44,832 nt of DNA from a phage (PX055572.1), one strand, 5' to 3'; shown: positions 1,821 through 25,557, counted from the stretch's first letter. The notes: generated by a model from the letters alone, not told the origin. Program-made: numbers and translations.

Positions 1821-3290
1821 ATGTTAACTATGAACGGTCAGAATCAGGGTGTTAAGACAAAACACCGGGAATGGCTGCATCACTTCGATAAATGGCAGAA
1901 GGTACGCCACGCGCTGGAAGGCGACCTTATTCGCTATCTGCGCAACGTCGGGAAGAACGAACCTGACCCGACCTACGCAGCCCAGCGCCAGGAAGAATAC
2001 GAGAACGGTGCTATCTGTTACAACTTCACTAAACGTACCCTGGCGGGGATGACGGGGTCAGTGATGCGCAAAGACCCTGAGCAGATTATCCCGCCTGAAC
2101 TTGAGTACCTGTTGCACAACGCTGACGGTTCGGGTGTAGGGCTGTGGCAGCACGCGCAGGATACGTTAATGGAGATTGACTCGATAGGACGCGGTGGGTT
2201 GCTGGTGGATGCCCCGGAAACAGCCGCAGCAACGGCGGCAGAGCAGAACGCGGGATTATTAAACCCGGTAATCGCATTCTATACCGCGGAGAACATTATC
2301 AACTGGAGACTCACCCGCATCGGTTCAGTGAACCGCGTGACGATGGTTGTATTGCGTGAGGCATGGGAATACTCGGAACCAGGCGCTGAGTTTGAAACAA
2401 AATTCGGCGAGCAATACCGCGTCCTTGACCTGATTGACGGTCGCTACCGCCAGCGCATCTACCGCTTCGATGCCGAAGGTGGCGCACAGGATGAAGTAAT
2501 CGAAATCTTCCCGGAACTCGGCGAACAGTTGCGCGGTAAAATCCCGTTCACGTTCATTGGCGCAAGCAACAACGACGCCACTATAGACGATGCGCCTTTA
2601 CTGCCGTTAGCTGAGCTAAATATAGGACACTTCAGAAATTCGGCCGATGTGGAAGAGGCCAGCTTTATAGTAGGTCAACCGACACTGTTCATTGCCCCCG
2701 GCGAGAACATGAGCATGGAGCAGTGGAAAGAAGCCAACCCACACGGCATACGCATGGGGTCGCGTTCAGGCCACAACATCGGCTCCGGCGGAAATGCGTT
2801 TCTGGTTCAGGCGGCGGAAACTAACCTCGCCAAACAGAATATGCTGGATAAAGAGAATCAGGCCATCCAGATTGGCGCGCAGCTTATCACCCCGACGCAG
2901 CAAATCACCGCGGAATCGGCCCGCCTGCAACGCGGCGCCGACACGTCAGTCATGGCAACAATAGCACGTAATGTAAGCATGGCGTATACCGATGCGTTGC
3001 GCTGGGTTGCGGGTATGCTTGGGCTTAGTGAAGATACTGAGATTGAGTTCAAGCTGAATATGGAATTCTTCCTGCAACCTATGACAGCTCAGGACCGCGC
3101 TCAGTGGATGGCGGATATTAACGCTGGCCTGCTACCCGCCACCGCTTACTATGCTGCGTTGCGCAAGGCAGGTGTGACTGACTGGACAGATGAGGACATT
3201 CAGAACGCTATTGAAGACGCACCTCTGCCGTTGGGTTCTGTTGCTCAGGTAGCGGGAGAGATTCCGCAGTCGGCGCAGCAACAGGAGTAA
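1821..3290 (+). CDS. Portal protein
   Basis: 489-aa ORF directly after terminase large subunit with SD aagagga 8 nt upstream; gene order and size. Confidence 0.7.
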   Translation: MLTMNGQNQGVKTKHREWLHHFDKWQKVRHALEGDLIRYLRNVGKNEPDPTYAAQRQEEYENGAICYNFTKRTLAGMTGSVMRKDPEQIIPPELEYLLHNADGSGVGLWQHAQDTLMEIDSIGRGGLLVDAPETAAATAAEQNAGLLNPVIAFYTAENIINWRLTRIGSVNRVTMVVLREAWEYSEPGAEFETKFGEQYRVLDLIDGRYRQRIYRFDAEGGAQDEVIEIFPELGEQLRGKIPFTFIGASNNDATIDDAPLLPLAELNIGHFRNSADVEEASFIVGQPTLFIAPGENMSMEQWKEANPHGIRMGSRSGHNIGSGGNAFLVQAAETNLAKQNMLDKENQAIQIGAQLITPTQQITAESARLQRGADTSVMATIARNVSMAYTDALRWVAGMLGLSEDTEIEFKLNMEFFLQPMTAQDRAQWMADINAGLLPATAYYAALRKAGVTDWTDEDIQNAIEDAPLPLGSVAQVAGEIPQSAQQQE

Positions 3291-3296
3291 ATAGAA

Positions 3297-3322
3297 AGGC
3301 CCCGCTAGGGGCCTTAGTTTTA
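3297..3322. terminator. Bidirectional intrinsic terminator (portal / KilA-N convergent)
   Basis: AGGCCCC-gcta-GGGGCCT flanked by T-rich on + and - strands. Confidence 0.6.
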
Positions 3323-3973
3323 ACGTATATTAGCCGCACATTTACGCACAACCCGAGGTATCGCCTCTTTCAGTTCACCCCATGTATTAACGGCCTCCAT
3401 GTCAAGAAGCGTCACCAGAGCTTTCTGGATGTCACTTCGCAACTGATTGGTCTTCGCATCCTGAGAGTCCCATGTATCGAAACCCGTTACGTCGCGGATA
3501 TCTACGGATTCCTTTACCGCTTTAGCCACCTGTATGAAGTGTCCACTGTGGCCAATTCTTCCCTCCGTGCGCTCGATCATTCGACTAACGGCAGCGTTAA
3601 GCTCGACAAAGCTCACCGCGCCAATGTTTCGTAGTTCTACCTGCCGTTGTGTGATAAAGCGGTCGATAACGAGGAAATGGAAATAGGCGCTGTATTGCTC
3701 AGCAATATATACTGCCAGATGGAGACATGCAAAGGTGCGACCGTTTCGGCCTTTCGTCGCCCTTATGGCATTCTCGATTCCGAGTTGTTTTTCGCATTCC
3801 TCCTTGAAAATCTTGAAGCCATCCGTTGCCATGACCTGGCGAAGCTCTCTGGTCCCCATGCCGTTGTCTAAACGCCAACGGTTCATCTGGTCAACCAGCT
3901 CGTTTACGTTAATAAAGTTTTCACGGTCAAAAGTGATTTCTCCATAAGGGAACTCTAATGTTTGCAGTTTCAT
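3320..3973 (-). CDS. KilA-N domain protein (moron-like insert in head module)
   Basis: Reverse-strand 217-aa ORF between portal and head-morphogenesis genes; central segment GRTFACLHLAVYIAEQYSAYFHFLVI resembles KilA-N/APSES core (from memory); SD AGGAGA; own promoter with palindromic operator. Confidence 0.5.
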   Translation of the reverse strand: MKLQTLEFPYGEITFDRENFINVNELVDQMNRWRLDNGMGTRELRQVMATDGFKIFKEECEKQLGIENAIRATKGRNGRTFACLHLAVYIAEQYSAYFHFLVIDRFITQRQVELRNIGAVSFVELNAAVSRMIERTEGRIGHSGHFIQVAKAVKESVDIRDVTGFDTWDSQDAKTNQLRSDIQKALVTLLDMEAVNTWGELKEAIPRVVRKCAANIR

Positions 3974-4000
3974 GTGTATTTCTCCTGTTTAAGTGTACGT

Positions 4001-4034
4001 TTAAATTCTACATTTGAATGTAGAATTTAATCAA
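4001..4034 (-). promoter_or_regulatory. Promoter TTGATT-N18-TAGAAT for KilA-N gene, overlapped by 14-bp inverted repeat operator
   Basis: + strand 4001-4030 TTAAATTCTACATT-tg-AATGTAGAATTTAA is a perfect 14-bp inverted repeat; -35 (rev) 4029-4034, -10 (rev) 4005-4010. Confidence 0.5.
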
Positions 4035-4115
4035 GCTCTTTTTAACCTTAAATGCGTATGATTATGCCAATACGTTACCGACTGATATGATTGTCATATC
4101 GAAACAGGAGGGTAT

Positions 4116-5159
4116 ATGAGCTTACTGACATCACTAATCAGCCACCAGATTTGGCTGCAACGCACCGCATCTGGTGAAGTGAAAGACCTAGCACCGTTCA
4201 TTCAGGAGATGCGGGACGAAATAAAACGGCAGGTGCTGTTATTCGGTGACGACGGGCGAAGCACTGCCCGACTGAATAAATTGTTACGCGACCTCGAAGA
4301 AGCGCTAACTGGACTTACAGGTGACTGGCAAACAAAGCTGACAGAAGACCTTAAGGAACTGGCGGCGTATGAGGCTGAGTGGAACGTAAAGACACTGACC
4401 GCCAACGTAAACGCGGAATTTGTTACGCCTACCGCTGAACAGGTGTGGGCCGCCGCCGAGTTTCAACCCTTATCGTTGAGCGACAAGCCTGTTGACTTCA
4501 CTAAGCTGATGTCAGGTTGGGGTGAAGCGGAGGTGGCGCGCCTGGTCACCGGCGTTAAGATGGGCTTTGTTCAGGGCAAGACAACACGGCAGATTGTTAA
4601 GAATGTTGTTGGCGCTGGTGGACTAGCCGACATCTCAGAACGTAACGCGACTACGGTAATCCGCACCGCGCTGTCCCACGTATCCAACGAGGCCCGTAAC
4701 GAGACGTACCGCCAGAACGACGACATCATCGAGAAATATGAGTGGGTGTCAACTTTGGACAGCCGTACCAGCGCTATTTGCAGGGCCAGAGACGGAATGA
4801 CGTGGGAAATCGGTAAAGGGCCGACACCCCCAGCCCATCCGAATTGTCGGTCGTGCACGGCTCCGGTAATCAGTTCAGAGTTCGACTTCCTCGATAAAGG
4901 CGCAAAACGGGCGGCTAAGGGCGCTGACGGCGGCACTCAGGTAAGCGCGGACACAACATATTACGAGTTCCTGAAACAACAACCAGCATGGTTTCAGGAC
5001 CAGGCGCTCGGTCCTGTTCGTGGTAAGATTTTCCGTAACAGCGGTATATCGCCGGAAGAGTTTCGCGTAAAATCTGTAGATGGTTTCGGGAATCCGCTCA
5101 CGCTTAAGCAGATGGCGGAACTCGATAAACGTGTTGCTGATTATCTGAAAGGGGATTAA
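4116..5159 (+). CDS. Head morphogenesis / minor head protein (Mu gpF / SPP1 gp7-like)
   Basis: 347 aa, SD caggaggg; C-terminal HPNCRSC motif typical of Mu F-like head morphogenesis proteins (from memory); position after portal. Confidence 0.65.
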   Translation: MSLLTSLISHQIWLQRTASGEVKDLAPFIQEMRDEIKRQVLLFGDDGRSTARLNKLLRDLEEALTGLTGDWQTKLTEDLKELAAYEAEWNVKTLTANVNAEFVTPTAEQVWAAAEFQPLSLSDKPVDFTKLMSGWGEAEVARLVTGVKMGFVQGKTTRQIVKNVVGAGGLADISERNATTVIRTALSHVSNEARNETYRQNDDIIEKYEWVSTLDSRTSAICRARDGMTWEIGKGPTPPAHPNCRSCTAPVISSEFDFLDKGAKRAAKGADGGTQVSADTTYYEFLKQQPAWFQDQALGPVRGKIFRNSGISPEEFRVKSVDGFGNPLTLKQMAELDKRVADYLKGD

Positions 5160-5161
5160 CG

Positions 5162-5620
5162 ATGGGCTTTTTCAAAGTAACTGATGTACCGTCGCGCCGC
5201 GTAGTCCAGTACGCCCGAGTGTCTGGCTCTGGCGAGAACGTGGTGTTTATTGGAGATGAAAGTGTACTCGGTACACCAGTAGACGATATGCCGTTTGCGG
5301 ATAAGACTGGCATCGCACTTCCTGCGGCGGGCATGCTTTACGAGATTCCGTATCTGGCTGATGCTGGCGACGTGTATTTCTCTGCGCAACCGCAGGACGC
5401 TGAACTGGCGGGCGGCAGCGCAACCATCACTGTCGAGGTTAAGGCAGGCAAAGCGCCGTATTCTCTGACCTGGTACAAAGACGGTAAGGAAGTGGTGAAT
5501 GCGCCTGAGGAGGCTCTGTCTCTGACGGTTAATGCGGTCGGCGAATACTTCGTTAAAGTTACTGATGCCGATGGAGTAGAGGCGGTAAGCAAAGCGGCGA
5601 AGGTTACTAAGCCAGAATGA
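5162..5620 (+). CDS. Ig-like domain protein (putative capsid decoration)
   Basis: C-terminal ATITVEVKAGKAPYSLTWYKDG...GEYFVKVTD matches Ig-like fold pattern and is paralogous to ORF 8929..9270; followed by intrinsic terminator. Confidence 0.5.
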   Translation: MGFFKVTDVPSRRVVQYARVSGSGENVVFIGDESVLGTPVDDMPFADKTGIALPAAGMLYEIPYLADAGDVYFSAQPQDAELAGGSATITVEVKAGKAPYSLTWYKDGKEVVNAPEEALSLTVNAVGEYFVKVTDADGVEAVSKAAKVTKPE

Positions 5621-5623
5621 TAA

Positions 5624-5652
5624 AAAGCCCCGCTATGGGGCTTTATTTTTAT
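5624..5652 (+). terminator. Intrinsic terminator after Ig-like gene
   Basis: AAAGCCCC-gctat-GGGGCTTT then ATTTTTAT. Confidence 0.65.
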
Positions 5653-5716
5653 ATGAACATCGCGGTGATAGCCGCAGCCGATACCCACAAAACAAAATAA
5701 AACATCACACTATTTG

Positions 5717-6061
5717 TCATTTGCATTTCTCGTCGTATGTTTGTTGTAACTGCGACAGACGATTACCGGCTGTCATCTCGTCCATAGAAGGCCCAGCGCC
5801 TGTGTCCATAAAGAACAGCGGAACAATCAGGAATGCGCCTGTAACACCGAGTACAACGTTAGTACCTATTTGCTTATTAACACGGTGCGTAGCGTTGGCT
5901 TGAGCTTGTTTTGTCGTGGCGATTCTCGATAGTAACTGATTACATGTTGCCGTTGTATCCCCCGCCTGATAAACCTGTAAAGCTGGGTCTGGCAACGACC
6001 TTACGCAACCACTCAAACAAACGGCTACAACACCCGCTACTGCTAATTTAATATATTTCAT
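5717..6061 (-). CDS. Lipoprotein (candidate superinfection-exclusion / receptor-blocking)
   Basis: Signal peptide MKYIKLAVAGVVAVCLSGC with lipobox LSGC; reverse-strand insert in structural module; translationally coupled to upstream small peptide. Confidence 0.55.
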   Translation of the reverse strand: MKYIKLAVAGVVAVCLSGCVRSLPDPALQVYQAGDTTATCNQLLSRIATTKQAQANATHRVNKQIGTNVVLGVTGAFLIVPLFFMDTGAGPSMDEMTAGNRLSQLQQTYDEKCK

Positions 6062-6159
6062 AGTTCACCATTACCCGTGTCAATTTCACCAATACCACTA
6101 CAAGCCCAAAGAAACATCACCGCATCAACTGCAATTACTACTGAAATAACGACTAACAT
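6058..6159 (-). CDS. Small hydrophobic peptide (33 aa)
   Basis: MLVVISVVIAVDAVMFLWACSGIGEIDTGNGEL; strong SD GAGGAGG 6 nt upstream; stop overlaps lipoprotein start (ATGA); downstream of promoter G. Confidence 0.35.
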   Translation of the reverse strand: MLVVISVVIAVDAVMFLWACSGIGEIDTGNGEL

Positions 6160-6186
6160 GACGGCCTCCTCGTTTCGATGTAATGA

Positions 6187-6215
6187 ATAGTACCCTATTA
6201 TATTGGTGTGTGCAA
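6187..6215 (-). promoter_or_regulatory. Promoter G: TTGCAC-N17-TACTAT with AATAG-N4-CTATT palindrome
   Basis: As transcribed: TTGCAC ACACCAATATAATAGGG TACTAT; ~28 nt upstream of small peptide/lipoprotein operon. Confidence 0.55.
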
Positions 6216-6488
6216 ACTATTTATTTACGTATTCCAGTTATTCCACCGAATTGTAAATGTTGGAATAAACTATTCGAATAGTTGACTTTTCACTGAAAAT
6301 ATGCTAAGCTCCACCTGAGCTTGTGAAGTATGAACAAGCGACCGCGGCGCGGGCAGGTAACGGAGCGGGACGTAAGTCCTGAGTGTAGTTACGCTGACGC
6401 GTTCGGAAGGGCCATACTCTATTGCTTGTGTAAAAAGTAACTGGTTTACTGAGATTACGCCGTTTCTATGTTTAAATGATAAGGACTA

Positions 6489-6520
6489 GCGCCCCGCTTT
6501 ATGGCGGGGCTTTACTTATC
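6489..6520 (+). terminator. Hairpin terminator/attenuator immediately upstream of Rz
   Basis: GCCCCGC-tttatg-GCGGGGC followed by TTTACTTAT; ends 16 nt before Rz ATG. Confidence 0.45.
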
Positions 6521-6535
6521 GAGAAAGGGGGAAAC

Positions 6536-6922
6536 ATGAATCTTAAAGCAACCGTCGTAGCAGGAGCATGTTTCATCATCCTGGCTTACACACACGGCAT
6601 TTATCAGTACCGCAGCGGCTGGAGCGAAGGCCGGGCGAATCTCGTTTCGCAGCAACAGCAGAAAGTACAGGCTGAGTTAGCGAAGAAAACACAACGGCAG
6701 CAGCAGGACGAATCAAAGGCCGCCGCCGCTGACAACGAAGGCAAGACGAAATCAGAGGTGATTACCCGTGAAGTCGTTAAGTACATTAAAACGCCTGGTC
6801 GCAGCGTGTGCACTTTCGACGATGCTCGCGTCCTGCTCAAGTCCCACGCCGTCGCAAACGCTAATTCCATTACCGGATACGACGATGATGCAGCCTCCGT
6901 GCAAACTGGCAGCTCCAAGTAG
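6536..6922 (+). CDS. Rz: i-spanin (Rz-like)
   Basis: N-terminal TM helix ATVVAGACFIILAYTHGIY followed by Q/K/E-rich coiled-coil; SD aagggggaa; contains out-of-frame lipoprotein ORF (Rz1) at its 3' end. Confidence 0.6.
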   Translation: MNLKATVVAGACFIILAYTHGIYQYRSGWSEGRANLVSQQQQKVQAELAKKTQRQQQDESKAAAADNEGKTKSEVITREVVKYIKTPGRSVCTFDDARVLLKSHAVANANSITGYDDDAASVQTGSSK

Positions 6923-7031
6923 CGACGCTGACGAGGATTTAGCTATCGACGTTCAGAACGCCGAATGCGTGCGGCAACTGCGTCTGAAAGTATTCCAGTT
7001 GCAGGATTATGTGAGGAATATTCTGGAATAG
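6768..7031 (+). CDS. Rz1: o-spanin (Rz1-like outer-membrane lipoprotein), GTG start
   Basis: GTG start with SD AGAGG 7 nt upstream; signal peptide with lipobox LASC; Pro-rich mature N-terminus CSSPTPSQTLIPLP; overlaps 3' end of Rz in a different frame and extends 109 nt beyond. Confidence 0.6.
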   Translation: MKSLSTLKRLVAACALSTMLASCSSPTPSQTLIPLPDTTMMQPPCKLAAPSSDADEDLAIDVQNAECVRQLRLKVFQLQDYVRNILE

Positions 7032-7113
7032 TTGCCTTGCATGTTGGAATAATTTATTCTTGACATGTAAATCCGGGTGGCCCGGGTTCCAACGTCCAGG
7101 GGACATACTGACT

Positions 7114-7815
7114 ATGAATCGTTTTTTACGTTATCCGTTCCAGGAAGAAGCTGGGGCAGAAGATAAAGCTGGTGGCGGTGACGCGCCGAAAATGTTCACC
7201 GCTGAAGAAGTTCAGGCGCTGATTGAGAAAGAAGTTGCCGGGCTTAAGGCTAATCAGGAAGCATTGTTGGCGGAGAAGAAAGAAGCCGCTCGCAAAGCAA
7301 AAGAGGCCGAAGAAGAACGGCAGCGCGCGCACCAGGAGGCGTTAAAAGCCGCTGGTAAGATGGATGAGTTCGAAAAGACGATTCGTAGCCAGTATGACCC
7401 GGTGTTAGCCGAGAAAGACGGTCGCATCTCCAGAATGGCAGAGCGTATCCTCGGCAGCGAACGTAAAGCGGTGCTAGGCTCTTTCGCGGGTGACTTTATT
7501 ACCCCAGAAGCAGTGGACATTCTTGCGCCGTTCGTTAAGACTGAGTTCGAAGGCGATGATGTGGTTACTAAGTTTGTTGGTGCAGACGGTAACGTAATCA
7601 CGACTGACCCGGAACAGTTCCGCAAATACCTGCGCGAACACAAGGCGTTTTCGCATTTGATCAAAGCAAATGCAGCTTCCGGCGGCGGGGCTTCCGGTAG
7701 CAAAGGCGGCGGGGCCGCACCAGCGTTTAAAGACATGAGTGAAGCAGAGCGTTTAGCCCTGTATAAATCGAACCCTGCCGAATTTGAACGGCAACTTAAA
7801 GCCCTGAGGAAATAA
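7114..7815 (+). CDS. Scaffolding protein
   Basis: Ala/Glu/Lys-rich helical protein (EKKEAARKAKEAEEERQRAHQEALKAAG) immediately upstream of major capsid gene; first ATG in ORF. Confidence 0.6.
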   Translation: MNRFLRYPFQEEAGAEDKAGGGDAPKMFTAEEVQALIEKEVAGLKANQEALLAEKKEAARKAKEAEEERQRAHQEALKAAGKMDEFEKTIRSQYDPVLAEKDGRISRMAERILGSERKAVLGSFAGDFITPEAVDILAPFVKTEFEGDDVVTKFVGADGNVITTDPEQFRKYLREHKAFSHLIKANAASGGGASGSKGGGAAPAFKDMSEAERLALYKSNPAEFERQLKALRK

Positions 7816-7817
7816 TA

Positions 7818-8867
7818 ATGGCAATTACCACTATCGGCGATATCGTAACTGGCAACATCCCGGTCCTGGCGTCTTATATGACCGAGGACCCGGTAGAAAA
7901 AACCGCGTTCTTCCAGTCTGGTATTCTGACCCCGACCCCGTACGCTGCCGAGATTGCCCGCGGCCCGTCCAACGTCGCTAATATTCCGTTCTGGAAAGCG
8001 ATTGATACCTCTATCGAGCCTAACTACTCGAACGATGTATACCAGGACATCGCCACCCCGCGTAACGTGCAGACCGGTGAGATGATGGCCCGCGTTGCAT
8101 ACCTGAACGAAGGTTTCGGTCAGGCGGATTTGACTGTCGAACTGACCAGCCAGAACCCGCTGCAATCCGTAGCGTCCCGTCTGGATAACTTCTGGCAGCG
8201 CCAGGCACAACGCCGTCTGATTGCTACCGCGCTCGGTCTGTACAACGACAACGTAGCTGCTACCGATGCTTACCACGAGCAGAACGACATGGTTATCGAC
8301 GTGTCTGCTACTCTGGGCTTCGATGCGGGCGCGTTCATCGACGCTACCCAGACTATGGGTGATGCGCTGATGGGCAACGGCGGTGAAGTGCTAGGCGCTA
8401 TCGCGATGCATAGCTTCGTTTATGCGCAGGCCCGTAAGCAGCAGCTTATTGACTTCATCAAAGACGCTGACAACAACACCCTGTTCGCCACCTACCAGGG
8501 CTACCGCGTGATTGTTGACGACAGCATGACCGTAGTCGGCACTGGCCCGACCCGTAAGTTCATCTCCATCATCTTCGGCAACGGCGCTATCGGTTACGGT
8601 GAAGGTTCTCCGTCCAACCCGCTGGAATACGAGCGCGAAGCGTCTCGCGGTAACGGTGGTGGTGTAGAAACCCTGTGGACCCGTAAGACCTGGTTGCTGC
8701 ATCCGTTTGGCTACAGCTTCACCAGCGCGGTAATCACCGGTAACGGCACCGAGACTGTTGCACGCTCTGCTTCCTGGCAGGACCTGGCGAATGCCTCCAA
8801 CTGGAACCGTGTGGTTGAGCGCAAGCATGTGCCGATTGCCTTCCTGGTAACTGGTGTCGGGTCTTAA
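7818..8867 (+). CDS. Major capsid protein
   Basis: 349 aa directly after scaffold gene with SD GAGGAAA; followed by hairpin terminator; size and position. Confidence 0.7.
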   Translation: MAITTIGDIVTGNIPVLASYMTEDPVEKTAFFQSGILTPTPYAAEIARGPSNVANIPFWKAIDTSIEPNYSNDVYQDIATPRNVQTGEMMARVAYLNEGFGQADLTVELTSQNPLQSVASRLDNFWQRQAQRRLIATALGLYNDNVAATDAYHEQNDMVIDVSATLGFDAGAFIDATQTMGDALMGNGGEVLGAIAMHSFVYAQARKQQLIDFIKDADNNTLFATYQGYRVIVDDSMTVVGTGPTRKFISIIFGNGAIGYGEGSPSNPLEYEREASRGNGGGVETLWTRKTWLLHPFGYSFTSAVITGNGTETVARSASWQDLANASNWNRVVERKHVPIAFLVTGVGS

Positions 8868-8882
8868 GGTTAAGCTATAATC

Positions 8883-8910
8883 GAGAGGGACTTCGGTCCC
8901 TCTTTTCATT
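8883..8910 (+). terminator. Intrinsic terminator/attenuator after major capsid gene
   Basis: GAGGGAC-ttcg-GTCCCTC then TTTTCATTT. Confidence 0.6.
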
Positions 8911-8928
8911 TACTAAGAGGATTCCTAA

Positions 8929-9270
8929 ATGGCAGACGTATTGAAGCGACGCACCACCGGCGTCTCCGCTGACGCCCCGGGCGCTAAGATTGACATGGAG
9001 ACTATTTCTCCTGCGTCTTTCTCTTCCGCGCTGGCGGCTACTACCGCAGTGACCACAGGTGAAACTATGACACTGACCGTAACCGTAGCGGGCGGTCTGG
9101 AGCCATATTCTTACCAGTGGTATAAGAATAACAACGCCATCGCCGGGGCTACCGCAGCTACCTACGCTAAAGCGTCGACCACTGCCGCCGACTCCGGTAC
9201 GTATAAAGTGGTTGTTCACGATGCGTATGGTAATATTATCTCCAGCAGCACTGTAGCAACTGTGTCTTAA
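8929..9270 (+). CDS. Ig-like domain protein (putative decoration protein)
   Basis: MTLTVTVAGGLEPYSYQWYKNN...DSGTYKVVVHD; paralogous to C-terminus of ORF 5162..5620. Confidence 0.5.
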   Translation: MADVLKRRTTGVSADAPGAKIDMETISPASFSSALAATTAVTTGETMTLTVTVAGGLEPYSYQWYKNNNAIAGATAATYAKASTTAADSGTYKVVVHDAYGNIISSSTVATVS

Positions 9271-9305
9271 TACAGCGGCCCTTCGGGGCCGTAATAAGGA
9301 AAGGT

Positions 9306-9486
9306 CATGGCAGATAATTATGTAATCCGCGAAAAGTACACCCACGTTGATGTTGTTGACGGTCAGGTGATGCCTGTTCGCGGTGCGGTAGAAGCGGAAG
9401 AACTGGTTGCAACACAACCGGACAACGAAGAAGCGCACAACAACGGTGGTGGTACTAAGCGACGTCGCCGTAAGTCAGAGGAATAA
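9306..9486 (+). pseudogene. Small ORF interrupted by apparent +1 frame break at a G-run (9358-9362)
   Basis: ATG 9306 with SD AAGGAAAGG gives MADNYVIREKYTHVDVVDG then continues in frame only 1 nt downstream (...VMPVRGAVEAEELVATQPDNEEAHNNGGGTKRRRRKSEE, stop 9484-9486). Confidence 0.25.
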
Positions 9487-9489
9487 TTT

Positions 9490-10002
9490 ATGCCGCTAAT
9501 CGTGGAAACTGGGGAAATCGTCCCGAATGCCGACAGTTACATTAGTCTGGCTGACGCCCGCGCGTTAGCGGCTAATTATGGTCTGGAGTTGCCCGCGGAT
9601 GATACCGCCGCAGAGGTGGCCTTGCGCAACGGTGCTACTTATGTCGGGCTTGCAGAACCGCAGATGTGCGGGCGTCGCGTATCCGCTGAACAGTCTCTTG
9701 CGTATCCACGCACGGGTGTAACGTTGAATGGTTTCCCAGTAGCTAACAATGCCATTCCGAAACAGGTAATTCTCGCGCAGGTAATCGCCGCTGTTACGTA
9801 TGGAGCTGGCACTGATGTTCGGGCTAACTCCGATGGACGTTCCGTGCAGACCGAGCGTGTAGAGGGTGCGGTAACAGTTACCTACTTCAACAACGGCAAC
9901 AGCGGAGCCACAACCGCGATTACCGCCGCTGACGACGCCTTACGCCCGTTACTGTGTGGTGGTCTTAACAACGGCTTCTCATTTAATGTGTACCGGGGTT
10001 AA
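9490..10002 (+). CDS. Head-tail connector / structural protein
   Basis: 170-aa ORF in neck region between capsid and tail genes; position only. Confidence 0.4.
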   Translation: MPLIVETGEIVPNADSYISLADARALAANYGLELPADDTAAEVALRNGATYVGLAEPQMCGRRVSAEQSLAYPRTGVTLNGFPVANNAIPKQVILAQVIAAVTYGAGTDVRANSDGRSVQTERVEGAVTVTYFNNGNSGATTAITAADDALRPLLCGGLNNGFSFNVYRG

Positions 10003-12954: not shown

Positions 12955-12982
12955 CTAAGGCCCCTTTCGGGGCCTTTTTCTT
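12955..12982. terminator. Bidirectional terminator between major tail gene and reverse cassette
   Basis: AGGCCCC-tttc-GGGGCCT then TTTTCTT; A-rich on the other side. Confidence 0.65.
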
Positions 12983-15451: not shown

Positions 15452-15558
15452 GTAGTGTGCTAGAATAATTTTGCGCCTAGTGTCGCACACGAAAAGCGGG
15501 TGGTTCCCGTCTGGCGCATTTCCTTTAACCAGTAACCTCTTAACCAAAGGATTAAAGA

Positions 15559-25529: not shown

Positions 25530-25557
25530 CTAAGGCCCCAAACGGGGCCTTTTCTCT
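25530..25557. terminator. Bidirectional terminator after tail fibre gene
   Basis: AGGCCCC-aaac-GGGGCCT then TTTTCTCT. Confidence 0.65.

Follow-up and report, generated by a model that had tools for sequence, protein, structure and literature searches.

Accessory head proteins with immunoglobulin (Ig)-like domains have long been known from phages, for example Hoc, pb10 and N4 gp17. In pb10 of phage T5, a protein of 164 aa, an N-terminal capsid-binding domain is combined with a C-terminal, solvent-exposed Ig-like domain (PMC5292684). Here, two open reading frames (ORFs) encoding Ig-like proteins, ORF1 and ORF2, were analyzed in a stretch of DNA of 44.8 kb (PX055572.1, in the following the window), which represents a Kagunavirus-type siphophage genome of the Guernseyvirinae. 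A sequence-only reading of this DNA had described the two as paralogous Ig-like ORFs, one behind the head-morphogenesis gene and the other behind the major capsid gene, and had suggested accessory capsid-surface proteins with possible adhesion roles. Both ORFs are indeed found at 5162-5620 and 8929-9270, including the peptides quoted for them, and adjoin a gene of the Mu-F type (PF04233) and an SPP1 gp13-like major capsid gene, respectively. On the evidence given below, ORF1 and ORF2 probably encode separately translated accessory head proteins which combine an N-terminal capsid anchor with an exposed Ig-like domain and are expressed in line with the scheme proposed further below. As such, the feature is of an ordinary kind and has already been annotated in close relatives.

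Domain architecture of the ORF1 and ORF2 proteins

Both proteins match PHROG families labelled as Hoc-like head decoration over their full length (Table 1) and show 92% identity to gp04 (ORF1) and gp11 (ORF2) of Escherichia phage Golestan, in whose RefSeq record both genes are likewise labelled "Hoc-like head decoration". For ORF2, the C-terminal domain is directly deducible from Pfam, as the scores exceed the gathering values of Ig_2 (32.6 versus 27), Ig_3 (32.0 versus 30) and I-set (24.6 versus 23.7), and comparison with the T5 pb10 structures 8zvi/5lxk in the PDB gives an E value of about 1e-13. In contrast, ORF1 stays below the gathering threshold of every Pfam Ig model (Ig_3 at 22.8 versus 30 bits) and also of BiPBP_C (24.5 versus 26.8). 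Its assignment as Ig-like is therefore based not on Pfam scores but on the beta-sandwich modelled by AlphaFold2 (AF2), on Foldseek matches and on the profile-profile alignment of the ORF1 and ORF2 families by hhalign (96.3% probability, E 1.9e-9).

In the AF2 model of ORF1 (overall predicted local distance difference test score, pLDDT, of 72), the Ig sandwich comprises residues 73-149, while the ORF2 model (overall pLDDT of 65) combines a disordered arm (residues 1-32) with an Ig sandwich (36-112). Both sandwiches are built from 6-8 strands at pLDDT values of 70-87. Across the two ORFs, Foldseek retrieves Ig domains of NCAM, CD22, Hoc, gp17 and pb10. With ORF1 as query, the NCAM Ig domain (E 6e-5) and N4 gp17 (E 8e-5) are found, Moo19 is also matched, and the BFVD hits include Hoc, outer-capsid and decorating proteins. 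The top structural matches of ORF2 are the capsid decoration proteins N4 gp17, Moo19, RB49 Hoc and pb10.

The N-terminal parts are of a different kind. In ORF1, this part has no Pfam match, is predicted to form beta strands and is modelled at a pLDDT of about 78 for residues 1-30, dropping below 50 at 43-52 and 66-71. By tblastn, it is confined to 489 records of Guernseyvirinae/Serratia-type phages, and clustering at 50% identity leaves only about five groups with the full ORF1 architecture among 1.8 billion representative proteins. An exhaustive search for distant ORF1 relatives was swamped by giant multi-Ig proteins, and no deeper alignment was obtained, so that the AF2 models rest on shallow alignments of sequences sharing 70% identity or more. 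The ORF2 arm is invariant among close relatives at D3, V4, K6, R7, R8, T10, G11, V12, S13, D15, I21, D22, M23 and P28-S32. Helices are absent from the AF2 models of either N-terminal part.

Between the two proteins, BLASTP aligns the C-terminal parts at 38% identity over 58 aa (E 3e-7). This alignment covers the Ig part only, and the N-terminal parts are unrelated. Hence, homology of the Ig domains, as claimed in the sequence-only reading, holds true, whereas a closer paralogy of the ORFs does not, as the two domains are not each other's nearest relatives: PHROGs 2973, 3995 and 158, pb10 and the PDB chains 9ncf_S and 9c2d_S all give better scores with ORF2 than the ORF1 family does. A local duplication giving rise to in-situ paralogues is not supported, in view of this nearness of ORF2 to pb10 and tail-tube Ig domains and of the unrelated N-terminal parts. 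Judging from the sequences, the pattern would rather fit two separate recruitments of an Ig domain that is widely exchanged among phages.

Selection and distribution in related phages

Ratios of non-synonymous to synonymous substitution rates (dN/dS), computed across 49-58 related sequences, are 0.06-0.09 for ORF1, 0.13-0.18 for ORF2 and 0.07-0.10 for the capsid gene. Both ORFs are real genes under purifying selection. At the domain level, diversifying selection on the exposed Ig domains was not seen (dN/dS of 0.07-0.13).

For establishing the distribution, 78 IMG/VR loci retrieved via the capsid protein were inspected. ORF2 is encoded in all 58 loci that have a capsid protein at least 86% identical and a sufficient extent; thus, no natural case of ORF2 loss occurs among the loci examined. 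ORF1, on the other hand, is missing from three loci (L023, L029 and L041). As this lineage retains the Mu-F, spanin and capsid genes as well as ORF2, ORF1 appears to be dispensable in nature. In relatives with a capsid protein identity of 72% or less, no Ig-like ORF was found near the capsid gene, and neither Ig gene occurs below a capsid protein identity of 86%. This confinement to a single capsid lineage is in agreement with anchors adapted to the capsid concerned. Moreover, ORF1 alleles of the Kagunavirus type are paired with ORF2 alleles of the Jerseyvirus type in three loci (L040, L052 and L061), and the two genes have therefore been exchanged independently.

Most of the relatives (52 of the 58 loci) bear an additional gene between capsid gene and ORF2, encoding a 'head fiber protein' of about 99 aa (PHROG 4366, E 6e-42) that is alanine-rich and has a C-terminal coiled-coil-like segment (compare L002, 5610-5909). 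It is missing from the window (between 8868 and 8928), from Golestan and from L016, L018 and L020. In loci lacking it, the ribosome-binding site usually serving the fiber gene is joined straight to ORF2.

Proposed virion location and alternative explanations

The interpretation as accessory proteins of the capsid surface, already put forward in the sequence-only reading, is the best-supported one and partly substantiated here. It is favored by the full-length PHROG matches to head-decoration families, the solved structures of homologous decoration proteins, the position in the head module, the natural loss of ORF1 in one lineage and the association with a single capsid lineage. Virion location, capsid binding site, copy number, ligand and hairpin roles are inferred. 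The adhesion role would be conceivable only in analogy to the mucus or glycan binding proposed for Hoc.

Several observations weigh against this interpretation. Against Ig-repeat tail-tube proteins, the ORF2 Ig domain scores even higher than against pb10 (9ncf_S, E 2e-32; 9c2d_S, E 4e-29). A pb10-like N-terminal anchor had to be rejected, as hhalign covers only pb10 residues 72-147, with nothing on 1-70 and hence no alignment outside the Ig domain. Foldseek searches of PDB and BFVD matched the Ig part only and returned nothing for either N-terminal part. The confidence of the AF2 models is moderate, as evident from the overall pLDDT values, and the GenBank names for the same genes disagree, ranging from tail protein, fibritin and neck whiskers to head decoration. 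The attenuator and stabilizer functions considered below for two hairpins are suggested only by sequence features. In addition, the accessible literature does not contain a proteome or structure showing either protein in the virion. For Serratia phage eta, a relative, the virion proteome was determined from excised gel bands of 38 kDa and above and is for this reason uninformative for ORF1 and ORF2. In a study on phage T102, 26 of 29 function-annotated proteins were detected, with the endolysin included in the preparation. A head structure from the Guernseyvirinae was not found in the PDB or by literature search, and a paper from 2026 calls the group structurally uncharacterised (PMC13243795).

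Due to this missing virion evidence and the contradictory GenBank names, a location of one or both proteins on the virion but off the capsid shell, as neck or collar whiskers or as tail-tube decorations displaying an Ig domain, stays a live rival, albeit an unlikely one. Besides the high scores with Ig-repeat tail proteins, the ORF2 Ig domain also matches a 'putative neck whiskers protein gp24' (9occ_A), and PHROG matches include the major-tail and tail families 158, 3995, 853 and 290. However, the totals for the tail proteins are inflated by their 3-4 repeated Ig domains, and per domain pb10 is equal or better; furthermore, structural proteins of phages freely exchange Ig domains, and the location is not fixed by the domain alone. 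While ORF2 lies directly upstream of neck genes, with Ad1 at 9490, ORF1 belongs to the portal-Mu-F operon and is distant from tail genes. Names of homologues such as 'neck whiskers', 'fibritin' or 'tail protein' are automatic transfers contradicting each other.

Even less probable are proteins residing outside the virion, that is, soluble or assembly-phase factors or products of moron-like accessory genes within the head module. Accessible data hold no proteomic detection, ORF1 appears dispensable in one lineage, and the gaps between the head genes are a hot spot for accessory functions, considering the lipoprotein, spanin and head fiber genes, a 129-aa ORF and a PAPS-reductase-like gene encountered there. 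Yet, purifying selection on the two genes equals that on the capsid gene in strength, ORF2 occurs throughout the subfamily, and both ORFs are on the strand of the structural genes and tightly coupled to these. In addition, wherever the location of phage Ig homologues is known, the domain is found on a virion protein.

Finally, the frames of the two genes could be compatible with Ig domains being appended to the Mu-F or capsid protein by programmed ribosomal frameshifting, as ORF1 starts 3 nt past the Mu-F stop in the -1 frame relative to that gene and ORF2 is shifted by +1 against the capsid gene; frameshift-attached Ig domains were reportedly described from other phages by Fraser et al. in 2006. 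This explanation can practically be dismissed, being refuted by the sequence: a TGA at 5138-5140 closes the ORF1 frame, so that only 7 codons, free of an X_XXY_YYZ slippery site, are left, the ORF2 frame is closed by TAA at 8926-8928 abutting its ATG, both ORFs have strong Shine-Dalgarno sites of their own, and capsid gene and ORF2 are parted by a terminator hairpin and, in 52 of the 58 relatives, by the complete head fiber gene.

Proposed mode of action

For the favored capsid-surface location, the family-specific N-terminal parts, a beta-rich segment of about 70 aa in ORF1 and an arm of about 32 aa in ORF2 that is disordered on its own, would anchor the proteins to the SPP1-type lattice, and the single C-terminal Ig-like domain of each protein would project into the solvent. 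Exposed in this way, it might mediate weak, non-essential binding to surface carbohydrates, either of the host or of mucus, or modestly increase the stability of the capsid. ORF1 would be expressed from the terminase-portal-Mu-F transcript, ending at the bidirectional terminator 5624-5644, and ORF2 by read-through of the leaky terminator 8883-8904, which we propose to keep its level below that of the capsid protein. An attenuator function of the latter hairpin, resulting in a high ratio of capsid to downstream products, is suggested by the head-completion and tail genes following on the same strand. The hairpin 3' of ORF2 would then act not as a terminator but as 3' stabilizer or processing barrier, an assignment made with low confidence and by analogy to the intercistronic UUCG hairpins of T4 mentioned below.

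A more far-reaching and rather doubtful extension of this proposal is that the head is equipped with a modular set of as many as three independent surface proteins (ORF1, head fiber and ORF2), with ORF1 and ORF2 attached at different lattice sites via two undescribed types of anchor, namely, a beta-rich domain of 70 aa and an arm of 32 aa that becomes ordered on binding. If so, Ig displays could be acquired, lost or exchanged by individual lineages while the capsid protein stays the same, and the short ORF2 arm would represent a minimal self-anchoring tag for capsid display.

Hairpins flanking the Ig genes

A GC-rich hairpin following each of the two ORFs, the second (9276-9291) devoid of a U-tract, had been noticed before, and both are readily confirmed. 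A third one, located 3' of the capsid gene and bearing a T-tract, had escaped the sequence-only reading. U-tracts as expected for intrinsic terminators are found at 5624-5644, on both strands, and at 8883-8904 (Table 1).

Table 1. Features of the head-gene region carrying ORF1 and ORF2, with positions counted from the first nucleotide of the window.
Feature	Position	Strand	Basis and remarks
Mu-F/SPP1 gp7-type head morphogenesis gene	4116..5159	+	Pfam PF04233, E 3.5e-13; PHROG 241, E 3e-154
Shine-Dalgarno AGGGGA of ORF1	5150..5155	+	6 nt upstream of ATG 5162, read from sequence
ORF1, 152 aa, putative decoration protein	5162..5620	+	Full-length match to PHROG 3945 ('Hoc-like head decoration'), E 3e-85
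ORF1 N-terminal part, aa 1-72, proposed virion anchor	5162..5377	+	AF2 beta strands 2-9, 14-20, 27-30, 59-63
ORF1 C-terminal Ig-like domain, aa 73-152	5378..5617	+	AF2 beta-sandwich, Foldseek, hhalign to ORF2
Bidirectional intrinsic terminator	5624..5644	both	Stem AAAGCCCC/GGGGCTTT, T-rich runs on both strands; terminator scan
Scaffold gene	7060-7815		Separate from capsid gene
Major capsid protein, SPP1 gp13 family	7818..8867	+	PDB 4an5, E 7e-43; 6r3a, E 2e-42; PHROG 247, E 2e-119
Terminator-like C(UUCG)G hairpin and T-tract (CTCTTTTCATTT)	8883..8904	+	Directly 3' of capsid gene, upstream of ORF2
Shine-Dalgarno AAGAGGA of ORF2	8915..8921	+	7 nt upstream of ATG 8929, read from sequence
ORF2, 113 aa, putative decoration protein	8929..9270	+	Full-length match to PHROG 4069 ('Hoc-like head decoration'), E 4e-51
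ORF2 N-terminal arm, aa 1-34, proposed anchor peptide	8929..9030	+	Residues 4-32 at AF2 pLDDT below 50
ORF2 C-terminal Ig-like domain, aa 35-113	9031..9267	+	Pfam Ig_2, Ig_3, I-set; hhalign to T5 pb10
Conserved C(UUCG)G hairpin without U-tract	9275..9292	+	Minimum free energy -15.9 kcal/mol, z -2.1
Head-tail adaptor Ad1	at 9490		Downstream of ORF2 and 59-aa ORF

The terminator behind ORF1 separates this gene from the convergent lipoprotein gene on the minus strand (5717-6061), and a hairpin is present at this place in all 43-45 distinct related sequences, with varying loops. Perfect AAGGCCCC-N4-GGGGCCTT hairpins of the same type are found at 3296-3315, 12957-12976 and 25532-25551, the former two at boundaries of convergent genes. 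Likewise, a GC-rich hairpin 3' of the capsid stop is preserved in nearly all of 50 distinct related sequences, including most of those with 40-72% capsid identity.

The hairpin behind ORF2 starts 4 nt past the stop codon (4-9 nt in relatives), just 5' of the ribosome-binding site of a 59-aa ORF, and its core at 9276-9291 is a perfect stem, CGGCCC-TTCG-GGGCCG, that precedes TAATAAGG. It is present in each of the 32 distinct related sequences, with a GC stem of 6-7 bp (5 bp in two), which varies by genus (ACGGCCC/GGGCCGT versus GCGGCC/GGCCGC). Continuing with AATAAGGAAAGG directly behind the hairpin, the sequence does not provide a U-tract, nor do the related sequences, showing TTT at most; as the U-tract is never present, this hairpin is not a canonical terminator. 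In L016 (5996-6385) and L018, an extra 129-aa ORF of unknown function (PHROG 322) is inserted between this hairpin and the 59-aa ORF, which makes the hairpin a boundary for the insertion of accessory genes.

As single-sequence shuffling only gave weak z-scores (-1.0 to -2.1), the evidence for the hairpins is their conservation at the same places with variable loops and changed stems. For the ORF2 hairpin, conservation was established from per-sequence folds, MAFFT having set the two stem variants out of register for analysis of covariation by RNAalifold. None of the Rfam families matched this region. Stable UUCG hairpins between cistrons of T4 are said to have been described by Tuerk et al. 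in 1988. Altogether, the hairpins are ordinary operon punctuation found throughout the genome and are not tied to the Ig genes.

Gene neighborhood

The first 25 kb of the window are 94-96% identical to the Escherichia phages vB_Eco_K-02, phiEc4 and Golestan, with about 93% in the section from 4000 to 10000. The genes are arranged in the order terminase, portal, a minus-strand gene, Mu-F, ORF1, the minus-strand lipoprotein gene, spanins, scaffold, major capsid protein, ORF2, the 59-aa ORF and Ad1. For the minus-strand gene between portal and Mu-F (3320-3973, 217 aa), the labels conflict: PHROG 6095 indicates an 'amidase' of the lysis group (E 4e-120), whereas Pfam gives a weak match to KilA-N (E 3e-4).

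The Mu-F homologue gp43 of Serratia phage eta has been detected in virions. In the window, the Mu-F gene is uninterrupted. In nine relatives (L005, L006, L018, L030, L034, L035, L038, L049 and L052), the Mu-F match is either split or lies 0.7-1.3 kb farther away from ORF1, which suggests an insertion inside or after Mu-F in some of these, consistent with the large intein that phage Snoke is reported to have in its capsid morphogenesis gene (PMC6776784).

The convergent 114-aa ORF downstream of ORF1 (5717-6061, minus strand), positioned between the bidirectional terminator and the spanins, encodes a lipoprotein signal (MKYIKLAVAGVVAVCLSGC...). It belongs to PHROG 13472, of unknown function, and among 79 loci is present only in Golestan (L001/L003). 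A moron function, for instance in superinfection exclusion, is conceivable. The spanin pair (6476-7031) follows in the middle of the head-gene block, with Rz1 nested in a different frame (ORF 6768-7031, about 47 aa in its short form). Rz probably starts at 6536, and a terminator-like hairpin is located upstream at 6491-6510. At the equivalent position, Serratia phage eta carries its whole lysis cassette (PMC3918226). In L041, which belongs to the lineage lacking ORF1, a 283-aa ORF (2770-3621, minus strand) is found between spanins and scaffold and looks PAPS-reductase/DUF3440-like from its sequence.

Directly 3' of the ORF2 hairpin, the 59-aa ORF (9307-9486) encodes a protein with acidic middle and basic tail (GGGTKRRRRKSEE) that is assigned to PHROG 4451, of unknown function, and kept in all relatives. 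Outside the head module, at 15470-15534 on the plus strand, a marginal Rfam match to the int-alpA RNA (RF02996) was obtained (36.6 bits versus a gathering score of 35.8, E 5e-4).

Significance

With Ig-like accessory head proteins being long known, the importance of the two genes is mainly a matter of annotation hygiene. It is useful, nevertheless, to recognize that the domain order is pb10-like and that the anchors are family-specific and uncharacterised. If these were mapped, small tractable coliphages, such as the Kagunavirus isolates of the BASEL collection, could yield compact tags for capsid display and could also serve as a test bed for the function of exposed Ig domains.

Comparison with known decoration proteins and operon elements

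The C(UUCG)G loops flanking ORF2 resemble intercistronic hairpins and terminators of phage late operons, and the first of them, with its T-tract, is like the attenuators common after capsid genes. In contrast to the intrinsic terminators of such operons, the hairpin 3' of ORF2 lacks the defining U-tract.

Among proteins decorating the same capsid family (gp13), the collagen-like trimer gp12 of SPP1 is comparable to ORF1 and ORF2 in being accessory, but is not related to them in sequence or fold; its closer analogue is the 99-aa head fiber gene found in most relatives. N4 gp17 and Moo19 (PDB 9e99 and 9d7z) are the top structural matches of the ORF2 Ig domain, at 34-39% identity and a template modelling (TM) score of about 0.5 on the query, and were matched by ORF1 as well. 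They differ from ORF1 and ORF2, in which one Ig domain is joined to a non-Ig anchor.

Hoc of T4 and RB49 (PDB 3shs) is likewise an Ig-like, non-essential capsid decoration. However, the Foldseek and sequence matches to RB49 Hoc are weak, and T4 Hoc has the opposite polarity and another number of domains, while ORF1 and ORF2 each possess a single, C-terminal Ig domain. Membership in the T4 Hoc family is not supported, the name 'Hoc-like' originating only from the PHROG label.

The likeness to T5 pb10 (PDB 5lxk and 8zvi) comprises the order of an anchor followed by a single C-terminal Ig domain and encoding within the head module; pb10 itself is dispensable. The Ig domains of pb10 and ORF2 share 42% identity over 74 columns (hhalign probability of 98.3%, E 1.3e-14), with a weaker relation to that of ORF1 (90.9%, E 1.2e-6). 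Differences concern the anchor, in pb10 an alpha-helical domain bound at the hexamer centers and here predicted to be beta-rich (ORF1) or a disordered arm of 32 aa (ORF2), and the capsid itself, as T5 builds a T=13 shell from an HK97-type capsid protein with fused scaffold, whereas the window encodes an SPP1 gp13-like protein and a separate scaffold. Taken together, domain order and homology, as deduced from the sequences, would point to pb10 rather than Hoc as the nearest counterpart of ORF1 and ORF2.

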